This document shows, piece by piece, positions 4,651 through 62,944 of a stretch of DNA of 64,000 nt. The notes under the pieces are model-generated. The model did no database searches and was not told where the DNA came from. It was given only the letters and a program-made list of their open reading frames with translations. This DNA is from an uncultured bacterium (GTDB taxonomy: Bacteria > Actinomycetota > Acidimicrobiia > Spongiisociales > UBA5794), in assembly GCA_963801165.1 (NCBI GenBank), contig CAWDDT010000009.1:32001-96000 (forward strand), given 5' to 3'. Made by a program: the position numbers and the translations under genes. Numbering within the stretch: the stretch's first letter is position 1; each line of letters begins with the position of its first letter.

Positions 4651-6434
4651 TGAAGGCGTTGAGCTTCTTCGACGAGAACATCCCGTGCCTCGCGGCATGC
4701 CCTGTGCACACCAATGCAGGGGCATACGTCGCGGCGATTGCCGACGGGTACGACCAACAGTCATACCTGACCGCCCGGCTCCCCAACCCGTTTGCATCTG
4801 TTTGCGGCCGGGTCTGCGCCGCCCCCTGTGAAGATGCGTGCCGGCGAGGAGAGATCGACCGTCCGATCGCCATCCGTGCGTTGAAGAGATTCGTTACCGA
4901 GCAGTACGGGGTAGAAGCAGGACCCGACTCGGAGTGGGGCGACGTCGTTGCCGCTCCCGCCCAGGAGAGACGCGAGCGCGTCGCCATCGTGGGTGGTGGC
5001 CCGGCCGGCCTATCGGCGGCCCACGACCTGCGACGCATCGGCTATCAGGTCACACTCTTTGAAGCCGCGGGGGTGCTGGGGGGAATGATGGTTCTGGGGA
5101 TCCCCGAGTATCGGCTCGATCGGAGACTCCTGCACGCAGAGATCGATGCCATCCTCGCGCTCGGTGTGGACGTTCGGCTGAGTACCCGTCTTGGCACCGA
5201 CGTCACCCTCGATGAGTTGCGCGATGACTACGACGCCGTCTTCCTGGCTCTCGGGGCGACCCGGGGCAGGGATCTCGACATCGAAGGCCACCAGGCAGAC
5301 GGGGTGATCCGTGCGTTGGAATTCCTGATCAACATCAACCAGGGCTTCCACGTCGACGTCGGCGAGCGGGTGGTCGTCATCGGCGGCGGCAACGTTGCAA
5401 TGGACGCGGCCAGGACGGCTCTGCGGGCCGACGAATACCTGACCATGCGTGAGGGTGCGGATCGATACGAAGCCCGCGAGGAGCGCGGCCTCATCACCCA
5501 AGCCGTGGACGCGGCGCGAACCGCCGTGCGCGCAGGCGCTCACGAGGTCACGGTGGTATCACTCGAGTCGCAGGCAGAGATGCCCGCCGATGAGTTCGAA
5601 GTCCACGAGGCAGCGGTGGAGGGTATCGACTTCCTCCACAGAAGGGGCCCGTCCCGGATCCTGACCGAAGGAGATGTCGTCGTGGGTTTAGAAACCATCG
5701 GTGTCAAGTCGGTCTTCGATACGAGCGGTCGGTTTGCCCCGGTGTTCGATCCGGATGACCGGAGGGTGATCCCGTGCGATACGGTGATCCTCGCCATCGG
5801 ACAATCAGTTGACATTGAGGCTCTCGGAGAGGCAGGGCCCGTGATCTCGCCGCGCCGCACGATTCAAACGAACGATGATTCGAGCACGTCGTTGCACGGG
5901 GTTTGGGCCGGCGGTGACGCCGCAGCCGGGCCGCGCAACTTGATCGATGCGATCGCAGATGGCCGTCGCGCGGCCGCGGCGATCCATACACAGCTCAGCG
6001 GCGCCGAAGCCGAAAAGCCGGCCGAGGGTCAGATGATCGTTCTGGAGCAGTTCCACCGCACCGAGGACCTCTACGATCGGGTGCCGCGCACGCCCGTGCC
6101 CTCTCTTCCTACGGGTCGTCGCGTCGGTCTGCGCGAGGTCGAGCTCGGGTTCACGGAAGCGGAAGCTCGCTGCGAGGCTGCGCGGTGTCTGCGCTGTTTC
6201 GTCAACGTGTTGCTCGATGTCGATCGGTGCGTGCTTTGCGGCCTGTGCGTCGATGTGTGTCCCGTCGACGTCTTATCGATTGTGCCCGCCGCCGAGGTTG
6301 CGCCTGACCTTCCCGTGGGCACCGCTCTGCTTCTGGATGAGGTTGCGTGTATCCGCTGCGCCCTGTGCATCGACCGATGTCCAACTAACGCACTGTCGAT
6401 GGGTTTGTGGTCGGGAATCGGGGTGCCGGCGTGA
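4650..6434 (+). CDS. FAD/NAD-dependent iron-sulfur oxidoreductase (GltD/DsrL-like) with C-terminal 2x[4Fe-4S] ferredoxin
   Basis: PCLAACP...CGRVCAAPCEDAC, FAD motif GGGPAG, GGGNVAMD, GGDAA, EAARCLRC, then CVLCGLCVDVCP and CIRCALCIDRCP. Start set by TGATG coupling. Confidence 0.9.
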   Translation: MKALSFFDENIPCLAACPVHTNAGAYVAAIADGYDQQSYLTARLPNPFASVCGRVCAAPCEDACRRGEIDRPIAIRALKRFVTEQYGVEAGPDSEWGDVVAAPAQERRERVAIVGGGPAGLSAAHDLRRIGYQVTLFEAAGVLGGMMVLGIPEYRLDRRLLHAEIDAILALGVDVRLSTRLGTDVTLDELRDDYDAVFLALGATRGRDLDIEGHQADGVIRALEFLININQGFHVDVGERVVVIGGGNVAMDAARTALRADEYLTMREGADRYEAREERGLITQAVDAARTAVRAGAHEVTVVSLESQAEMPADEFEVHEAAVEGIDFLHRRGPSRILTEGDVVVGLETIGVKSVFDTSGRFAPVFDPDDRRVIPCDTVILAIGQSVDIEALGEAGPVISPRRTIQTNDDSSTSLHGVWAGGDAAAGPRNLIDAIADGRRAAAAIHTQLSGAEAEKPAEGQMIVLEQFHRTEDLYDRVPRTPVPSLPTGRRVGLREVELGFTEAEARCEAARCLRCFVNVLLDVDRCVLCGLCVDVCPVDVLSIVPAAEVAPDLPVGTALLLDEVACIRCALCIDRCPTNALSMGLWSGIGVPA

Positions 6435-53234: not shown

Positions 53235-54161
53235 ATGTCGATGGGTTTTGCATCCGAGGCAACGGGCTGGCTCATAGACGGCGATGCCTCCATCAGCTGG
53301 CAAACGATGCAGGACCTGCTCAATCGGGCACCCGCGACGGTGGCACGGGAGCGGGCCCGGGTTGCGACCACCGGCTGGGGAAAGCGGCTGTTGGAGAAGC
53401 AGGACGCGGAAGGTACCTGGGCGCATGGCGTCTACGGCCCGAAGTGGATCTCCACCACATACACGCTCTTGCTGTTGCGCCGGCTCGGTATACCGCCCAA
53501 CAGCCTTGACGGCAGGCGAGGCTGCCGGGCGCTGTGGGACCGGATCATCGTCGACGGAGGGGTCACCTGGGCGAACACGGCGGTGATGCCCGATGTCTGT
53601 GTGACGGCAATGTTTCTCGCTCTCGACTACTACTTCGACAACCGCGACCCGCGCCGCGAGGAAGCGCTGGCCTGGATGCTCGATCAACAGCTTCCCGACG
53701 GGGGCTGGAACTGCTCGGCGAGACGCTCCGGGTCGAGCCACGGGTCCTTTCATACGACGATCTCCGTGCTCGAGGCCCTCGCCGAGATCGGCGATCCTGC
53801 CAGTGACACAGCGGCCGGGCGGGGCCGCGAGTTCTTTCTCGGTCACCGGATGTACCGCTCACACCGCACGGGCGAGGTGTCGCACCCGTCCTTCACCAAG
53901 CTGTCGTTCCCGCCGCGCTGGTACTACGACGTGCTGCGTGGTCTCGACTACTTTCGCCTGGTCGACGCCCCCTACGACGAGCGGCTCGACGACGCTCTCG
54001 AGCTCCTCGTCACCAAGCGACGCAAGGACGGTAAGTGGCCCGTGCAGAACAAGCACCAGGGCCGGGTGTGGTTCGACATGGAGACGGGGCGCGAGCCCAG
54101 CCGCTGGAACACGTTGCGGGCGCTCCGCGTGCTCGACCGCTATCAGCCGAGCGCCCGGTGA
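53235..54161 (+). CDS. Prenyltransferase/squalene-cyclase-like repeat protein
   Basis: QDAEGTW, QLPDGGWNC, FPPRW.YD.LRGL, PSRWNTLRA. Confidence 0.8.
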   Translation: MSMGFASEATGWLIDGDASISWQTMQDLLNRAPATVARERARVATTGWGKRLLEKQDAEGTWAHGVYGPKWISTTYTLLLLRRLGIPPNSLDGRRGCRALWDRIIVDGGVTWANTAVMPDVCVTAMFLALDYYFDNRDPRREEALAWMLDQQLPDGGWNCSARRSGSSHGSFHTTISVLEALAEIGDPASDTAAGRGREFFLGHRMYRSHRTGEVSHPSFTKLSFPPRWYYDVLRGLDYFRLVDAPYDERLDDALELLVTKRRKDGKWPVQNKHQGRVWFDMETGREPSRWNTLRALRVLDRYQPSAR

Positions 54162-55921
54162 AGGAACGCCGCCATCTGGCCGCGGGTCACCGACTGTGTC
54201 GGGCAGAACCGGTCGTTGGCCGGCGGGTTGCAGCCCTTGGTGATCCCGGCGCCGGCCAGTAGCTCAATGCTCGTCTCGAAGACAGACCCGTTGTCGTCCA
54301 CGAATTGGGTACCGTCTGCGTCACCCGTGAGATCAAGCGCTCGCACCAGGAACGCCGCCATCTGGGCGCGGGTCACCGGGTCGGTGGGGCAGAAGTGGTC
54401 GTTGGCCGGCGGGTTGCAGCCTTTGGTGATCCCGTCCGCCGCCAGTGTGTTGATATTGGCGAAGTGGACCGAGGACCCCGTGTCGGTGAAGGGGTTGCTC
54501 GTCACCGCCGGCAGATCGAGTGCCCGAACCAGGAACGTGGCCATTTGTTCCCGGGTGACGACATCGTCCGGGCAGTACAGATCGTTGATCGGCGGGTTGC
54601 AGCCCTTGGTGATGCCCTGGTCGGCCAGCCAGCTGATGTCGTTCTCGAAGAGGTAGCCGGGCGGCACGTCCCGAAACCCGGAGGCGGGTAGATCATCTGT
54701 CGATCCGTACTCGTCAGCACCGATGTCGGCGGCTGCCCCGACCGGCCGATAGTTCCCATCGAAATCGTCGTCGACGAGCGTGACACCAGCGGCGGCGTCG
54801 ATGGCTCCGGTGGCCGCTGCGGTCAGGTGCAGATCGCCGCTCCCGAAAAACCAGCCGGCGGGCGCGTTGGTGACGTTGCCCTGGAGCGTCCCCGTGGCGC
54901 CGTCCCGCTGCCAGATCGGCCCATCGGTGAGATTGTTGGCGATCGTCGCCGTGGTCGATGAGAAGCGGTACTCGATGGTCCCCGACGGGAACGTGCCATT
55001 CTGGATGACCGTGTTGTGATAGATCGCGACGTCCCGTGCGTAGTTGACGGTGATGCCGATGTCGCCGGAGCCTTCCCGGTAGATCATGTTGTTGCGGATC
55101 TCACCGCCCTGGAAGTCATAGGTGCTCTCGCCGTCCCTGGAGTTGACGTCGGGCGCCGACAATCCGAGAGCGATGGACCGGTCGCACTCGATGAACAGGT
55201 TTCGTTCGACGACGGTGTTGATCGAGTTGCGCCACATCAGCACGGCCGGCCCGGCGAGCTGGCCCTCGGGAGCGCGAATGTTGCGGAACTCGTTGTCCCT
55301 GATGATCCACCCCGACCCGGCGAGCACGTCGACGCCGTTGGTGTAGTCGCTGCGAGCCCGGTCGGTGTACTCGAACAGAGAGCACTCGACGACGCCGTCG
55401 TCTGCATAGGGTCCCGGGTTGCCCGCCGTCGATCCCTTGACGAATTGCTCACCGGCGTCGACCAGGTGAAGGTTGTACAGATGCACTCCGTCGGCGTCAT
55501 CCTCCCCGTGGATCTGGATCAGGTGGTAGTAGGCGTCACGCAGCGTGAGGTCGGCGATCAGCACTTCCTTGGCGTCGTAGACCGCCATCACGTGTGGCAC
55601 GTTGCCGTAACTGGTGTTCGACATGCCCCGTCCGCGCAGGACGACCGCATCGCGGTTGCCGCTCGCCGAGCGGATTGTCACGTTGGATACGCCACGGATG
55701 TTGAGCGTGTTGGTCAGGTCGTAGGTGCCGTCTGCGATGAGGATGGTGGTGCCGGAGGTGAGGTTGTTCACCGCGTCCTGGAGATCGGCGGTGGTGGCGA
55801 CGGTCACCACGTTTCCCGTCGCCGATGACAGCGGGCCACACGCGGAAGCCGCCCCAGCTTGCGGCGAAGGGAAGGTGAAGAGGGCGGTGGCGACCAGGAT
55901 CAGTGGAAGGGATCGTTTCAT
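54143..55921 (-). CDS. Secreted parallel beta-helix protein with three C-terminal SLH domains
   Basis: Signal peptide, TI.IADGTY, Asn-ladder repeats, ADIGADE; 3 x (GITKGCNPP...FCP...VTR.QMA.FL.RAL). Confidence 0.88.
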   Translation of the reverse strand: MKRSLPLILVATALFTFPSPQAGAASACGPLSSATGNVVTVATTADLQDAVNNLTSGTTILIADGTYDLTNTLNIRGVSNVTIRSASGNRDAVVLRGRGMSNTSYGNVPHVMAVYDAKEVLIADLTLRDAYYHLIQIHGEDDADGVHLYNLHLVDAGEQFVKGSTAGNPGPYADDGVVECSLFEYTDRARSDYTNGVDVLAGSGWIIRDNEFRNIRAPEGQLAGPAVLMWRNSINTVVERNLFIECDRSIALGLSAPDVNSRDGESTYDFQGGEIRNNMIYREGSGDIGITVNYARDVAIYHNTVIQNGTFPSGTIEYRFSSTTATIANNLTDGPIWQRDGATGTLQGNVTNAPAGWFFGSGDLHLTAAATGAIDAAAGVTLVDDDFDGNYRPVGAAADIGADEYGSTDDLPASGFRDVPPGYLFENDISWLADQGITKGCNPPINDLYCPDDVVTREQMATFLVRALDLPAVTSNPFTDTGSSVHFANINTLAADGITKGCNPPANDHFCPTDPVTRAQMAAFLVRALDLTGDADGTQFVDDNGSVFETSIELLAGAGITKGCNPPANDRFCPTQSVTRGQMAAFLHRALG

Positions 55922-56014
55922 AGGCACATTCTGGCTTGGCCGGGTTTCCTACCGGAATCCGACGGCGTGTCCCGGTGCGACGCTCTACGATCCGCTCCGG
56001 TCTGCGAGGAGCCA

Positions 56015-58069: not shown

Positions 58070-58150
58070 CACGGAGCAGCGGAAGATGCCACCATATAGC
58101 CCCGGCCACCGGTTCAGCGGTGGCGAGTCCCTGTCGATGTGAGGGAGTAC

Positions 58151-59518
58151 ATGGCTCTGACCCGTGCCAATCAGTCGCGTGCCCTGTGGTGGACCATCGC
58201 CGGTGTTGTCGCCGTGGCTCTGCTTGCCCTGGGAGCGTTTCTGTTCGTCAACTCGTTCACGACGGGACGGGCGCTCGACAAGGCCGAGACGTTGCACCGG
58301 GCCGACCTCGCTCTTGCTGCTCAGGACGTGGCGATCAAGTCGATCGGGCAGCTCGTCCTCGTTTCCCAGGATGCCGCACTCCAGGTGGCGACCCCCGCCG
58401 ATGTCGAGGCCGCCGCAGGTGAGGCAGATCGAGCCGTTTCCGACCTTGGTGAGCGGTTCGAGGCCCTGGATTCCGGTCTGGTGGACAAGCTCACCCCCGC
58501 TTTCGACGCCTGGCAGGCGGCTGCCCTGGACGTGACCTCGGCGGCGTCGTCCGGCGTTCCGCAACAGGCAGCTGACGCGTTGACGGGATCCCTGGCGCAG
58601 GCTTCAGACCGCTTCGTCAACGAGCTCTCTATTGAGCGTGACTCCGCGGCTCAGGCTGTGTCTGACACCACCGATAGCGTGAGCTCTCTGACCCGCCTCG
58701 TTGGTTTTCTCACGCTTTTCCTCATTCCCCTGGTGGCGGTCTTCGTCTACTGGCTGATTGCCCGCCGCCAGCTCCGCGACGCTACGGCCCATCTCGATGC
58801 CCGCATTGAGGCAGAAAAGACGTTGGGCCGAGCCAAGGATCAGTTCATCGCCAACTTCTCGGAAGAGTTACGGACACCACTCACCTCGATCTACGGCTTC
58901 TCCGAGGTGCTTCTCGACAAGGGGTTCATCGACCCGCAGGCGGGTGATCTGGTCGGTCTGATCAACCAGGAGTCCGGCGAGCTGGCGCGTATGGTTGAAG
59001 ACCTGCTGGTGGCTGCCCACGATGAGAGCGCCCCGCTCCCAATCGGTCTCGAGACCCTCGACATGGATGAGCAGATCCGCGAAGTGATTGCGCCGTTCGA
59101 GAAGCGTGGGCGTGCCGTTGGTGGGACATGGGGTGGTGGTGCGGTGCGGGCCGACGCGCTCCGGGTAAGGCAGATCCTACGCAACCTCATCACCAACGCC
59201 ATCGAGCACGGTGGTCCCGACATCAGGATCTTCGGAGACGCGGCGGGCAGTAAGTATGTCGTGTCGGTGGAGGACAACGGGCCTGGTGTCCCCGAGGAGA
59301 TCGTCAATCAGTTGTTTGCCCGTTTTGTGAGCGGTGGGGAGCCTTTGACAACGGGAACACCCGGTCTGGGTCTTGCGGTGGCACGACTGCTGGCCCGGGC
59401 GATGGGTGGATCGCTCGAATATCAGCGAGTCGCCAACCGCACAGCGTTTGTCGTCTCCCTGCCGCTGGCGACGCAGGCCGACGACGATGCGGGCCCGGCT
59501 CCAGCGTCTGACCGATGA
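58151..59518 (+). CDS. Two-TM sensor histidine-kinase-like protein lacking the phosphoacceptor His
   Basis: H-box reads FSEELRTPL (TCG GAA GAG). N (NLITNA), G1 (DNGPG), F and G2 (GLGL) boxes are present. Confidence 0.9.
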   Translation: MALTRANQSRALWWTIAGVVAVALLALGAFLFVNSFTTGRALDKAETLHRADLALAAQDVAIKSIGQLVLVSQDAALQVATPADVEAAAGEADRAVSDLGERFEALDSGLVDKLTPAFDAWQAAALDVTSAASSGVPQQAADALTGSLAQASDRFVNELSIERDSAAQAVSDTTDSVSSLTRLVGFLTLFLIPLVAVFVYWLIARRQLRDATAHLDARIEAEKTLGRAKDQFIANFSEELRTPLTSIYGFSEVLLDKGFIDPQAGDLVGLINQESGELARMVEDLLVAAHDESAPLPIGLETLDMDEQIREVIAPFEKRGRAVGGTWGGGAVRADALRVRQILRNLITNAIEHGGPDIRIFGDAAGSKYVVSVEDNGPGVPEEIVNQLFARFVSGGEPLTTGTPGLGLAVARLLARAMGGSLEYQRVANRTAFVVSLPLATQADDDAGPAPASDR

Positions 59519-61758
59519 TGGCCGGTCTTCGTCGTATCGCGACTGCCTTTGCCGCAGCAGCCCTTGTGGCTGCGTTGCCCGGTGCCGCGGTAGCCGATTT
59601 CGGCAACGGTCCCTCGCTCGAGCCCATTCCGGATCAGACCGTTGCCGAGCTGAGCCAGATGCGGGTGACGGTCGAAGCAAGCGACCCCGATCTACCCAAT
59701 GACGTGCTCCGCTTCTCTCTGGCCGGAGGCCCGCTCGGTGCAGTCATGGCGCCGGGCGGAACCATCACGTGGACCCCTTCGGAGGCCAACGGTCCTGGTA
59801 CGTATACGATCGTCGCCCGCGTGGCGGATGCGTCGGGGCAGACCGACCAGGAGTCCTTTCAGGTGACGGTCACCGAGGTGAACACCGCACCCAAAATCGG
59901 ATCCATTCCGGATCAGGCGCTCGGACCGGGCGACGAGCTCGAGCTTGAAATCCCGGTTACCGATGTCGACCAGCCGGCCAACTCGTTCACGTTCGCGGCA
60001 ACCGGGCTTCCCCCGGGAACGAGCATCGACAGCACTACGGGGAAGATCAGCGGGACTGTGTCGAGCGTTGGGGACGCCACCTCGGGTACCGCCGTTATCA
60101 CCGTGACCGACGACGGCAACCCTCCCGCCCGGGCGACGCGTTCCTTCTCGTGGTTGGTAACGGCCGGCAACCATGCTCCGACCATGCAGCCGCTCGGCGA
60201 GCAAACGGTTCTCGAGGACGGTGTGGTCCGGTTCACGGTTTCTGCCCTGGACGCCGACCCGGGTGACGCGCTCATCTACTGGCTGGCAGAGGGTGTCGAC
60301 CCGGTGCCGGCCGGCGCCACGATCGACGAGAAGGGTGGGGTGTTCACCTGGAAACCGACGCAGGACCAGTACGGGGCTACCTACCGGTTCAACGTGATCG
60401 TGTCGGATTCGGGGTCGCCGCGACTATCCGATACCCAGCTGATCACGGTCGTCCTTCCTGAGTACAACACGCCCCCCGAGATCGGCGCCGTTTCCGACCA
60501 GCATTCGGCCGAGGGCGACAGCGTGCTGGTGAGAGTGACCGCAACCGACGTGGAACGCAACGCCCTCACCTTTTCGGCGGCGGACCTCCCTGCAGGGCTC
60601 GAGATCGATCCGGCCACAGGCGTGATCAGCGGCGAAGTCGGATACGAGGCCGGGGCGCGATCGCCGTATAGCGTCGTAGTGACGGTCACCGATGATGGGC
60701 GGCCTGCGGCGTCCAGTCACGCTTCGTTCAGCTGGGCGATCGACGAGACCAACCGGCCGCCGGTGGTCACGCCGGTGACGGTGGCGGCGATGGTGGGGAG
60801 AACGACACCTATCGAACTCGACGTATCCGACCCCGATGGCGACCCGCTCACGTTCACGATCGTCGACCAGCCGAGCAACGGCAGGCTCAGCGGAGTGCCG
60901 CCCACACTGACCTACCTGAGCGATGGGGGCACGAGCGACGCGTTCACCTTCACCGTCACCGACGGTGAGTTCGAGGTTGAGGGGACCGTGCTGATCGAGA
61001 TCAGAGAGAGCAATGCTCCGCCGGAGCCGGGTGTCGACGAGTACCAGCTGACGAGCGGCGAGACGCTTCAGGTCGACGCCCCCGGGGTGTTGGGCAATGA
61101 CCACGATCCCGACAGCGAGCAGCTGACCGCGGTGCTGGTGGCCCGACCCGACCACGGTGAGCTGACCCTAAACGCCGACGGTTCTTTCACCTATACCCCC
61201 GAAGCCGGCTACGTCGGGGCCGACAAGTTCACCTATGCCGCCGTCGACGAGCTCGGGGAGGAGTCGACGGCAACCGTCGTCCTGACCGTGGTGGCCGCAC
61301 AGACACCGGGCGAGGTCGAGCCCCCGGCAGGATCGCGGGCGGCGGTCGTTGCCGCCACTGCGGCGGCGTGGCGGCCGCCGGCCGAGGAGGACGGGGCTTT
61401 GCTCCCGCGGGTTGGCCGCGCCGTGACCGACGCCTTTCACAGTGGCGTTGCCGCGATTCCGCAGATCGCCTATCCGTTGTTGTTGCTGATCGCAGCACTG
61501 GTGCTGGCACTCACCGTCGGCAAGGTTTCGCTGCTGCCGGTGGGCAACGGGCGCACCCAGGGTGAAGGGACGGTGGACTGGTACGACCCGGCCCGCGGTT
61601 TCGGCCGCATCTTGTCCGATGACCGCGGTGACGAGGTCTTCGTCCACGCCGGCTCGTTCGAGAAGGGGGAGACCCCGGTACCGGGCCAGCGGGTCGAGTT
61701 CATCGCCGCCACCATCCGCGACCGCAAGATGGCCCTCAAAGCCTGGCAGGCGTCTTGA
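59515..61758 (+). CDS. Surface protein: signal peptide, six Ig/cadherin-like repeats, TM helix, C-terminal cold-shock domain
   Basis: Repeats start NGPS, NTAP, NHAP, NTPP, NRPP, NAPP with DxD motifs; TM IAYPLLLLIAALVLALTVG; then GTVDWYDPARGFGRI...EVFVH...GQRVEF. Confidence 0.88.
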   Translation: MMAGLRRIATAFAAAALVAALPGAAVADFGNGPSLEPIPDQTVAELSQMRVTVEASDPDLPNDVLRFSLAGGPLGAVMAPGGTITWTPSEANGPGTYTIVARVADASGQTDQESFQVTVTEVNTAPKIGSIPDQALGPGDELELEIPVTDVDQPANSFTFAATGLPPGTSIDSTTGKISGTVSSVGDATSGTAVITVTDDGNPPARATRSFSWLVTAGNHAPTMQPLGEQTVLEDGVVRFTVSALDADPGDALIYWLAEGVDPVPAGATIDEKGGVFTWKPTQDQYGATYRFNVIVSDSGSPRLSDTQLITVVLPEYNTPPEIGAVSDQHSAEGDSVLVRVTATDVERNALTFSAADLPAGLEIDPATGVISGEVGYEAGARSPYSVVVTVTDDGRPAASSHASFSWAIDETNRPPVVTPVTVAAMVGRTTPIELDVSDPDGDPLTFTIVDQPSNGRLSGVPPTLTYLSDGGTSDAFTFTVTDGEFEVEGTVLIEIRESNAPPEPGVDEYQLTSGETLQVDAPGVLGNDHDPDSEQLTAVLVARPDHGELTLNADGSFTYTPEAGYVGADKFTYAAVDELGEESTATVVLTVVAAQTPGEVEPPAGSRAAVVAATAAAWRPPAEEDGALLPRVGRAVTDAFHSGVAAIPQIAYPLLLLIAALVLALTVGKVSLLPVGNGRTQGEGTVDWYDPARGFGRILSDDRGDEVFVHAGSFEKGETPVPGQRVEFIAATIRDRKMALKAWQAS

Positions 61759-62944
61759 CCATTCCCAGCTGGTGGACATCGATCCTCCCGGTGCGGAACC
61801 CGGCCTCGCAGTACGCCAGGTAGTAGCGCCACGTTCGCCGGAACCGCTCGTCGAGGCCCAGGCTGCGCAATGCCGGCCAGGAGTTTTCGAAGCGCTCCCG
61901 CCAGGTACGCAGCGTCCGTGCGTATGAGGCGGCGAACGAGTCGACAGACCTGACGGTCAAACCTCGCTCTCCGGCGAGGTCGCGCAGCTTTTCCACCGAT
62001 GGGAGGGCGCCACCCGGGAAGATGTGCTTGCTGATGAAGTCGTCGCGGCCGAGCAGTGAGTCGAAGAGCCGGTTGTCGATGGTGATGGCCTGCATGGCGA
62101 CCGCCCCGTTGGGGCGGAGCCGGGCCTGGATCTGGTCGAACAGCGTGGGCCAGAGATCTGCGGGAATCGACTCGATCATCTCGATTGTCACGATCTTGTC
62201 ATACAGCCCCGTCTCATCGCGGAAGTCCTGGAGCCTGATTTCTGTCCGGTCGGCGACACCGGCCCTGGCGAGCCGTTCCCTGGCGTAGGTCGCCTGCTCA
62301 CCGCTGAGAGTGAGCCCGGTCACCGACGCGCCCATCTCGGTGGCCGCGTATTCCGCGAAGCCTCCCCAGCCGCAGCCGATCTCGAGCACTCGGTCGCCCG
62401 GCCCAACCCCGGCGAGCTCGGCGAGACGCTGGTACTTGGTCAACTGCCCCTGGGTGAGATCGTCGTCTTCCGACCGGAACACCGCCGATGAGTACGTCAT
62501 AGTGGAGTCGAGCCAGGCGGTGTAGAAGTCGTTGCCGAGGTCGTAGTGGTCGCCGATGCTGGGGATCTCGGAACGGCGCCGTACCGTCAATCGTTGCCAT
62601 AGCCGGCGGGCGGCTGTGATGACACGGCCGGGATTGCGGTCCCTCACACGGGCGTCGAGGTTCCTCGCCATCGCTTCCAGGGTCGCTGCCAGGTCGGGGG
62701 TGTCCCACAGACCGGCCATGTAGGCCTCGGCGAACCCGACGCCGCCGCCTGTGGCGAGCCGCCACAAGAACCGTATCGGACGGTAGACGGTGACGCGCCC
62801 GCTTGGCCCCGGCTCGGCGCCATGTCCTACCAGGATGGCCGAGCCGGGTAGTTCGACGGTGATCTCGCCGACTCGAATCCGTCGTAGCAGCGCTCCGTAG
62901 CCGGCTCGCACCGGTTTCATCGTGATCGACGCAAAGACGCTCAC
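61736..62944 (-). CDS. Cyclopropane-fatty-acyl-phospholipid synthase family methyltransferase
   Basis: HYDLGNDFY, MTYS, LEIGCGWG, IEMIE, IFPGG.LP, YYLAYCEAGF. Confidence 0.92.
   Translation of the reverse strand: MSVFASITMKPVRAGYGALLRRIRVGEITVELPGSAILVGHGAEPGPSGRVTVYRPIRFLWRLATGGGVGFAEAYMAGLWDTPDLAATLEAMARNLDARVRDRNPGRVITAARRLWQRLTVRRRSEIPSIGDHYDLGNDFYTAWLDSTMTYSSAVFRSEDDDLTQGQLTKYQRLAELAGVGPGDRVLEIGCGWGGFAEYAATEMGASVTGLTLSGEQATYARERLARAGVADRTEIRLQDFRDETGLYDKIVTIEMIESIPADLWPTLFDQIQARLRPNGAVAMQAITIDNRLFDSLLGRDDFISKHIFPGGALPSVEKLRDLAGERGLTVRSVDSFAASYARTLRTWRERFENSWPALRSLGLDERFRRTWRYYLAYCEAGFRTGRIDVHQLGMVKTPARL

Follow-up and report, generated by a model that had tools for sequence, protein, structure and literature searches.

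In the 64,000-nucleotide stretch of DNA analysed here (the window; contig CAWDDT010000009.1, positions 32,001 to 96,000, from an uncultured member of the Acidimicrobiia), a gene at 59515-61758 on the forward strand encodes a surface protein in which immunoglobulin (Ig)- and cadherin-like repeats are followed by a single transmembrane (TM) helix and a C-terminal cold-shock domain (CSD), and this gene directly follows a gene whose product resembles a sensor histidine kinase. What is new here is the kinase link of this confirmed, conserved and unusual architecture, referred to below as Ig-TM-CSD. We read the protein as the non-kinase half of a two-gene envelope-sensing module whose membrane-tethered CSD is the cytoplasmic effector end, and we give this reading a rough probability of 0.45. 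It builds on the observed architecture, conservation, pairing and joint inheritance and on the predicted fold of the CSD, from which we infer the topology, contact with the kinase, binding of nucleic acid and any regulatory output.

According to this proposal, the repeat stalk would contact something in the envelope or outside the cell, the unusually conserved TM helix and juxtamembrane segment would associate with the TM region of the kinase, and the CSD would act as the cytoplasmic effector end of the pair, in the window most likely still binding single-stranded RNA or DNA at the membrane. A membrane-bound CSD that binds single-stranded RNA or DNA (ssRNA or ssDNA) would provide an output for the module without need for an adjacent response regulator. 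A bolder version can also be drawn, in which an Ig-repeat receptor with its own CSD output forms a pathway lacking a response regulator and is gated by the kinase through contact or through release of the CSD; we consider this version unlikely.

Bacterial transmembrane signalling is usually pictured as a kinase acting on a response regulator or as ToxR-like one-component proteins, and CSDs are commonly regarded as soluble RNA or ssDNA chaperones. The family described here would fix a CSD, behind a stalk like that of an adhesin, to the inner side of the membrane, with a kinase gene always adjoining and a regulator never, and the pairing with a sensor kinase suggests an undescribed wiring of surface sensing to the cell interior. 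The bolder version, if true, would add a new class of output to bacterial transmembrane signalling, namely a type I receptor whose tail binds RNA or ssDNA, a design not described in bacteria; binding of RNA or DNA by the CSD would connect contact at the surface directly with the handling of nucleic acids at the membrane. If the CSD binds no nucleic acid, the family would clearly exemplify, in bacteria, a CSD put to new use as a protein module. Full-text literature searches found no bacterial CSD that is membrane-anchored, linked to Ig repeats or paired with a kinase. To the first-pass annotation of this DNA the architecture was unfamiliar.

Architecture of the protein and integrity of its frame

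The open reading frame (ORF) at 59515-61758 (+) is one uninterrupted frame of 747 residues, and its product is a real, conserved membrane protein of predicted type I topology. A signal peptide is read from the translation at residues 1-27 (59515..59595, +), with the letters MMAGLRRIATAFAAAALVAALPGAAVA followed by DF and predicted cleavage after AVA, and the AlphaFold2 (AF2) model has a helix at residues 6-18. The extracytoplasmic part that follows (residues ~33-594; 59611..61296, +) consists of six Ig/cadherin-like repeats of ~90-98 residues, recognised by both Pfam and AF2, with N-x-x-P motifs at their boundaries (NTAP at residue 123, NHAP at 219, NTPP at 318, NRPP at 413 and NAPP at 500) and an acidic DxD-type motif in every repeat of the translation. 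He_PIG (136 bits), Big_9 (149), Cadherin_4 (94) and Cadherin_5 (85) all score above their Pfam cut-offs, and in NCBIfam the tandem-95 repeat scores 102 bits with a cut-off of 90. The full-length AF2 model shows six beta-sandwich blocks (residues 33-593), a TM helix (652-668) and a CSD (681-745). These results bear out the parts list of the first-pass annotation, namely a signal peptide, six repeats, a Pro/Ala linker, one TM helix and a C-terminal CSD, on the evidence of the translation, Pfam, AF2 and Foldseek.

The Pro/Ala-rich linker (residues about 595-651; 61297..61467, +) is modelled with a low predicted local distance difference test score (pLDDT). Within this otherwise variable stretch stands a conserved segment at 61330-61375 (residues 606-619), in which G606, R608, A614, T615 and W619 are invariant in six aligned orthologues and to which AF2 gives one lone strand (residues 608-614); this segment could be a contact site. 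The single TM helix is placed by AF2 at residues 652-668 (61468..61518, +), in agreement with the 61465-61521 assigned earlier, and a cytoplasmic tether of ~14 residues (669-682; 61519..61560, +), defined from alignments and also of low pLDDT, leads to the CSD (residues 683-747, with the stop codon 61561..61758, +). Directly after the helix comes a conserved juxtamembrane motif, G(R/K)(V/I)S..P. In a family alignment of 35 sequences, which are related to one another so that the counts are not independent, and which does not include the members from families f11 and f12, P654 is kept in 33/35, L657 in 33/35, L658 in 34/35, G669 in 35/35 and P675 in 32/35.

The type I topology follows from the signal peptide together with the single TM helix, and is backed by a positive-inside pattern: Lys plus Arg residues are more numerous just after the helix than just before it in 30 of the 31 members with enough sequence, and equal in one. 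The structural parts of the earlier claim of a type I protein with an intracellular CSD thus stand; as for the location itself, it is from the signal peptide, the single helix and this charge pattern that we infer that the repeats lie outside and the CSD in the cytoplasm, ~14 residues from the membrane.

The identity of the tail as a CSD is supported by Pfam, by sequence matches in the PDB, by AF2 and by Foldseek. PF00313 matches residues 684-738 with 31.6 bits (cut-off 27), or 36.0 bits when the last 97 residues are scanned alone, and phmmer matches solved CSDs down to E = 7e-7, among them the CSD of AtGRP2, a 134-aa CspB, CspE and CspA. In the AF2 model of a 120-aa C-terminal piece, run together with four orthologues, the TM helix is followed by a five-stranded barrel (strands at 53-64, 69-74, 80-84, 99-107 and 110-118 of the piece) with pLDDT 84-91. 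Nearly all of the Foldseek PDB matches listed are cold-shock domains, led by CRHSP-24, CspA, YB-1 and CspE, and CspA 2l15 superimposes on the modelled CSD with a TM-score of 0.86 on the target and a root mean square deviation of 1.7. The tail is thus predicted to fold as a five-stranded OB/CSD barrel, as had been expected of it. The NCBIfam Csp equivalogs (CspA/C/D/E/G) all remain below threshold on the 747-aa protein, with 17-28 bits at cut-offs of 115-152 and a best score of 28.2 bits for the CspE model (cut-off 120). The tail is therefore a member of PF00313 and the protein itself is not a CspA-family cold-shock protein. Compared with the small proteins CspA, CspB and CspE, it has a homologous domain with a five-stranded barrel in prediction and RNP1/RNP2-like motifs; those proteins, however, are soluble and ~65-75 aa long, whereas here the domain forms the C-terminal end of an exported membrane protein of 747 aa, with Arg and Ala at two aromatic positions of its face.

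The fusion of Ig repeats and CSD is not an artefact. An 8599-b contig from another study covers 58139-61900 with 52 substitutions and 0 gaps, and a 495-b contig from a further study covers 61337-61831 and is identical, so that independent contigs cross the junction of TM helix and CSD without indels. Runs X1, X3 and X4 have stretches without contig cover (e.g., 61289-61540 in X1), and these gaps are not informative. The first-pass annotation had allowed for a stop setting off a stand-alone csp gene; the frame is open in the window, in the independent contigs and in the orthologues, and alignments of the latter show TM helix, tether and CSD conserved as a single block.

Pairing with an upstream sensor-kinase gene

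The gene immediately upstream (58139..59518, +) encodes a 459-aa sensor histidine-kinase-like protein with Pfam matches to HisKA (49.5 bits) and HATPase_c (78.6 bits), which follow two TM segments that flank an extracytoplasmic helical region of ~150 residues. In the window this gene and the Ig-TM-CSD gene share an ATGA, in which the stop of the former overlaps the start of the latter and which by its sequence couples the two genes translationally. A kinase homologue lies immediately upstream on the same strand in 19/19 assessable loci from 15 genomes, with 35-66% identity over nearly its full length; assessable loci are those with enough upstream DNA, and three more that stop at contig edges were left out. 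The 19 loci comprise 10 same-genus orthologues (in one of which the kinase is frameshifted in the assembly), 3 giant paralogues and 6 loci from other genera or families. In close relatives the neighbourhood is syntenic, with a prolyl oligopeptidase gene upstream and convergent CFA synthase, DUF1365 and amine oxidase genes downstream. At the distant loci and beside the paralogues the flanks are wholly different and include, for example, TetR, dehydrogenase, MFS, metallo-beta-lactamase, LCP and transglutaminase genes. The comparison of flanks, which left out the stretch upstream of the kinase in locus L047, revealed no conserved response regulator or third gene beside the module, a distant orphan regulator not having been searched for.

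Over 17 loci, the identity matrices of the kinases and of the C-termini of their partners show a correlation of r = 0.90, and the paralogues group together in both. Because relatedness inflates such figures, this value shows joint inheritance and not coevolution. A complex prediction with two copies of the cytoplasmic part of the kinase plus tether and CSD, run without controls, scored 0.00, which counts neither for nor against binding.

The window's kinase has lost its phospho-acceptor. Its H-box reads FSEELRTPL, with Glu242 (codon at 58862-58864) in the place of the His, while the N, G1 and G2 boxes are retained; with the His lost and these boxes kept, the protein probably binds ATP without canonical autophosphorylation. 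Among the 19 paired kinases, 15 keep the His in an ISHELRTPL box, L003 and L037 have a Thr instead (VSTELRAPL), and the box is unrecognisable in L005. As far as the sequences indicate, the loss resembles a pseudo-kinase state in some members of the genus, and across loci it follows no pattern with erosion of the CSD face. The module is accordingly not a canonical two-component system, as the window's kinase has no His and no conserved response regulator adjoins. The conserved kinase pair, the His loss in the window and the uneven preservation of the nucleic-acid face within the family, described below, all go beyond the first-pass annotation.

At one further locus, L044 (G013:C304, 4727-4975), the kinase, the Ig repeats and the TM helix are absent together, as in a natural deletion variant. 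The stand-alone CSD ORF in G013 is 77 aa long and has a GTG start at 4742, 13 bases past the oligopeptidase stop. G013 is 82% complete and fragmented, and L044 may be a chimeric contig.

The nucleic-acid face and alternative explanations

The consensus of the two RNA-binding motifs is K-G-F-G-F-I for RNP1 and V-F-V-H-F for RNP2. The CSD of the window has RGFGRI and VFVHAG at these places and retains Trp689, Phe696, Phe709 and His711, yet neither motif is complete, as the second RNP1 aromatic is replaced by Arg698 and the last RNP2 aromatic by Ala712; in all of these residues the first-pass annotation was correct. Its face ranks among the better-kept ones in the family, and it probably still binds single-stranded RNA or DNA, judging by the residues retained. 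The RNP2 Phe/Tyr is present in 33/35 sequences of the family alignment. Members from f11 and f12 carry canonical GFGFI, GFGYI or GYGFI together with VF(V/I/F)H, the Trp is found in the two of them whose strand-1 region was read, and L047, L048 and L035 have the second RNP1 aromatic. The likeliest history is that the ancestral CSD bound nucleic acid and that the face was later relaxed in part of the window's genus. A hidden Shine-Dalgarno sequence in the conserved E-G before the CSD was considered and judged to be accounted for by the protein motif, because a Gly precedes strand 1 in cold-shock proteins.

Several observations weigh against an effector CSD in a sensing module. In the family alignment the Trp of the stacking face occurs in just 8/35 sequences, the first RNP1 aromatic in 22/35, the second in 0/35 and the His of the face in 26/35, and in several same-genus orthologues GFG is replaced by GLG, GVG or GTG. 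The best-kept part of the domain is not RNP1/RNP2 but the beta4-beta5 hairpin, GQRV.F.AA.I(R/K)GRRIALKVW, whose conservation fits protein contact at least as well as nucleic-acid binding. With its His lost in the window and at three other loci, the kinase half may not be signalling canonically. Finally, all sampled members belong to one order, so that the conserved adjacency is partly a matter of shared ancestry.

The alternative that survives best holds that Ig-TM-CSD is a kinase accessory protein with a non-canonical CSD, which would modulate the upstream kinase in the manner of extracytoplasmic accessory proteins and use the CSD for protein contact only, perhaps docking on the cytoplasmic domains of the kinase and binding no nucleic acid. 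We regard this as somewhat unlikely. The pairing at 19/19 loci is what such a protein would show, and many members have eroded RNP1/RNP2 aromatics, the hairpin and the TM helix being best kept; the window's CSD nevertheless retains four stacking residues, the fully canonical motifs of distant members point to an ancestral nucleic-acid function, and the Pfam scan found no known kinase accessory domain. Known proteins of this kind, such as LpqB with MtrB and YycH/YycI with WalK, are membrane-anchored and have a large extracytoplasmic part. Ig-TM-CSD is like them in the position of its gene directly downstream of a kinase, its membrane anchor, its large ectodomain and its conserved pairing. It is adjacent to and co-inherited with a sensor kinase, as is a trait of kinase accessory proteins, which are a functional class and not a homology family; in sequence it is unrelated to LpqB and YycH/YycI, and none of their domains appears in its Pfam scan. 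LpqB and YycH/YycI are not known to have a cytoplasmic domain that binds nucleic acid, and a response regulator adjoins their kinases.

A plain anchored adhesin or stalk, with the CSD as a passive stopper or remnant in the cytoplasm and the adjacency of the kinase as inherited synteny with no functional link, seems improbable to us. The protein shares its ectodomain repeat families (He_PIG, Big_9, Cadherin_4/5 and tandem-95) with Ig-like and cadherin-like adhesins, the number of repeats is highly variable (members range from 575 to >2300 aa), and the restriction of all members to one order would suit simple inheritance. The pairing, however, survives where all other neighbours differ and also among paralogues that share a genome, the divergence of the kinase goes along with that of its partner (r = 0.90), and the CSD is kept about as well as the rest, with 53-85% identity over the C-terminal 123 residues compared with 55-81% overall. 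In its anchor the protein differs from such adhesins: its TM helix leads into a folded domain in the cytoplasm, and neither LPxTG nor another of the usual adhesin anchors is seen in the translation.

Regulated proteolysis, which we hold to be very improbable, would have a signal at the ectodomain lead to cleavage in or near the TM helix and so free an ~8-kDa cold-shock protein to act on RNA or transcription, in a Notch- or RseA-style relay. The strongly conserved TM and juxtamembrane motif, with a Pro at the start of the helix and Gly-Arg at its cytoplasmic end, would suit such a cut. The genome has no canonical small Csp, one of its two PF00313 matches being Ig-TM-CSD itself, and the 77-aa ORF of G013 starts almost at the juxtamembrane G-R, so that the free form is viable as a gene. 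No protease gene is conserved beside the module, however, and the pairing with a kinase is left unexplained. The last alternative, that assembly or sequencing error fused a csp gene to an adhesin or that the CSD is translated from an internal start, can point to in-frame GTG codons just before the CSD (V676 and V687) and is dismissed as extremely improbable, since the same frame is open in several metagenome proteins and in >15 genomes, no indels occur where independent contigs span the junction, and TM helix, tether and CSD are conserved as one block.

The two-gene sensing module that we prefer can also be set beside other proteins that hold a nucleic-acid-binding type domain at the membrane. 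ToxR and CadC have an N-terminal cytoplasmic winged-helix domain, have no signal peptide and bind double-stranded DNA. Ig-TM-CSD resembles them in being single-pass, with the sensor outside and a nucleic-acid-binding type domain inside, but its topology is the opposite, with a C-terminal CSD behind an Ig-repeat stalk. With CSD-DUF1294 fusions it has in common that a CSD is joined to a membrane part. Those fusions carry their CSD on the N-terminal side of a small multi-helix membrane domain and lack an ectodomain; DUF1294 has no match in the Pfam scan of Ig-TM-CSD at E <= 1. Cold-shock domains also appear among the RNA-binding effector domains of conflict systems (PMC7159879), which is not relevant to Ig-TM-CSD.

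Distribution of the family and neighbouring sequences

The Ig-TM-CSD family is real but small and, within the sampling made, limited to one order of the Acidimicrobiia, where it is known from uncultured members; the host is a soil and salt-marsh actinobacterium. A search with residues 625-747 recovered five more proteins of 746-918 aa with an identical Pfam set, including the CSD, and 53-85% identity over that region (55-81% over the whole protein). Homologues carry automatic names such as 'VCBS repeat-containing protein', 'large repetitive protein' and 'cold shock CspA family protein', and three full-length loci were found in genome contigs, one of them titled as an Acidimicrobiia metagenome-assembled genome. 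In a set of 41 related genomes (of which G027 and G038, flagged as unpublished, are in the overall tally but are not used for any claim), a TM+CSD match at E <= 1e-25 within a long open frame is present in 12 of the 15 genomes of the genus, G000 included, and three genomes of other genera have weaker full-length matches. An even sample of 301 genomes of the class contained TM+CSD within a long frame in only 6, all from the same order (families f1, f11 and f12), and every other match in that sample is a small stand-alone cold-shock protein.

A TM+CSD profile run against 1.84 billion representatives gave 2503 matches at E <= 1e-3. Among the best 150 of these, ~15 have TM+CSD at the extreme C-terminus and the remainder are multi-CSD proteins; all of the long C-terminal TM+CSD representatives (575-1664 aa) have ectodomains of the He_PIG, Big_9 and cadherin-like families. 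Residues 628-747 had no usable match in the ESM Atlas.

Four genomes of the genus have a second, paralogous Ig-TM-CSD gene with a frame of 2000-2300 aa, at L030 (G002), L031 (G006), L032 (G012) and L033 (G008), and these giant paralogues have their own upstream kinase in all three loci with upstream DNA. In longer members of the family (P0006, P0011, P0121 and P0139) the N-terminus bears an additional domain of ~170 aa, marked by conserved Cys residues and a W..W.E motif, which matches nothing in Pfam and is missing from the window's protein.

With regard to other CSDs, G000 is 98% complete and has two PF00313 matches, Ig-TM-CSD and one small divergent CSD (G000:C10:115356-115541, -; L002 1477-1866, -). 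The latter lies just downstream of an L28-like ORF and has GIGVI instead of GFGFI and no VFVH. The PF00313 scan of the whole genome found no canonical CspA-type gene in G000.

Elsewhere in the window, the product of the gene at 54146-55927 (-) combines a right-handed beta-helix with an SLH domain, which hints at an envelope with an S-layer or secondary cell-wall polymer in the host. In genome G304, a second homologue of the kinase adjoins the paired kinase in divergent orientation (L046, 583-2004, - and 2206-3744, +). Also in G304, an ORF resembling the T4 gp19 tail-tube protein (L045, 435-1043, +) lies ~1.3 kb upstream of the module's kinase and, going by this resemblance, may be part of a contractile injection system or prophage. 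Lastly, L034 carries a class II ribonucleotide reductase gene (2-1765, -) with Hint-domain matches, which suggests an intein.

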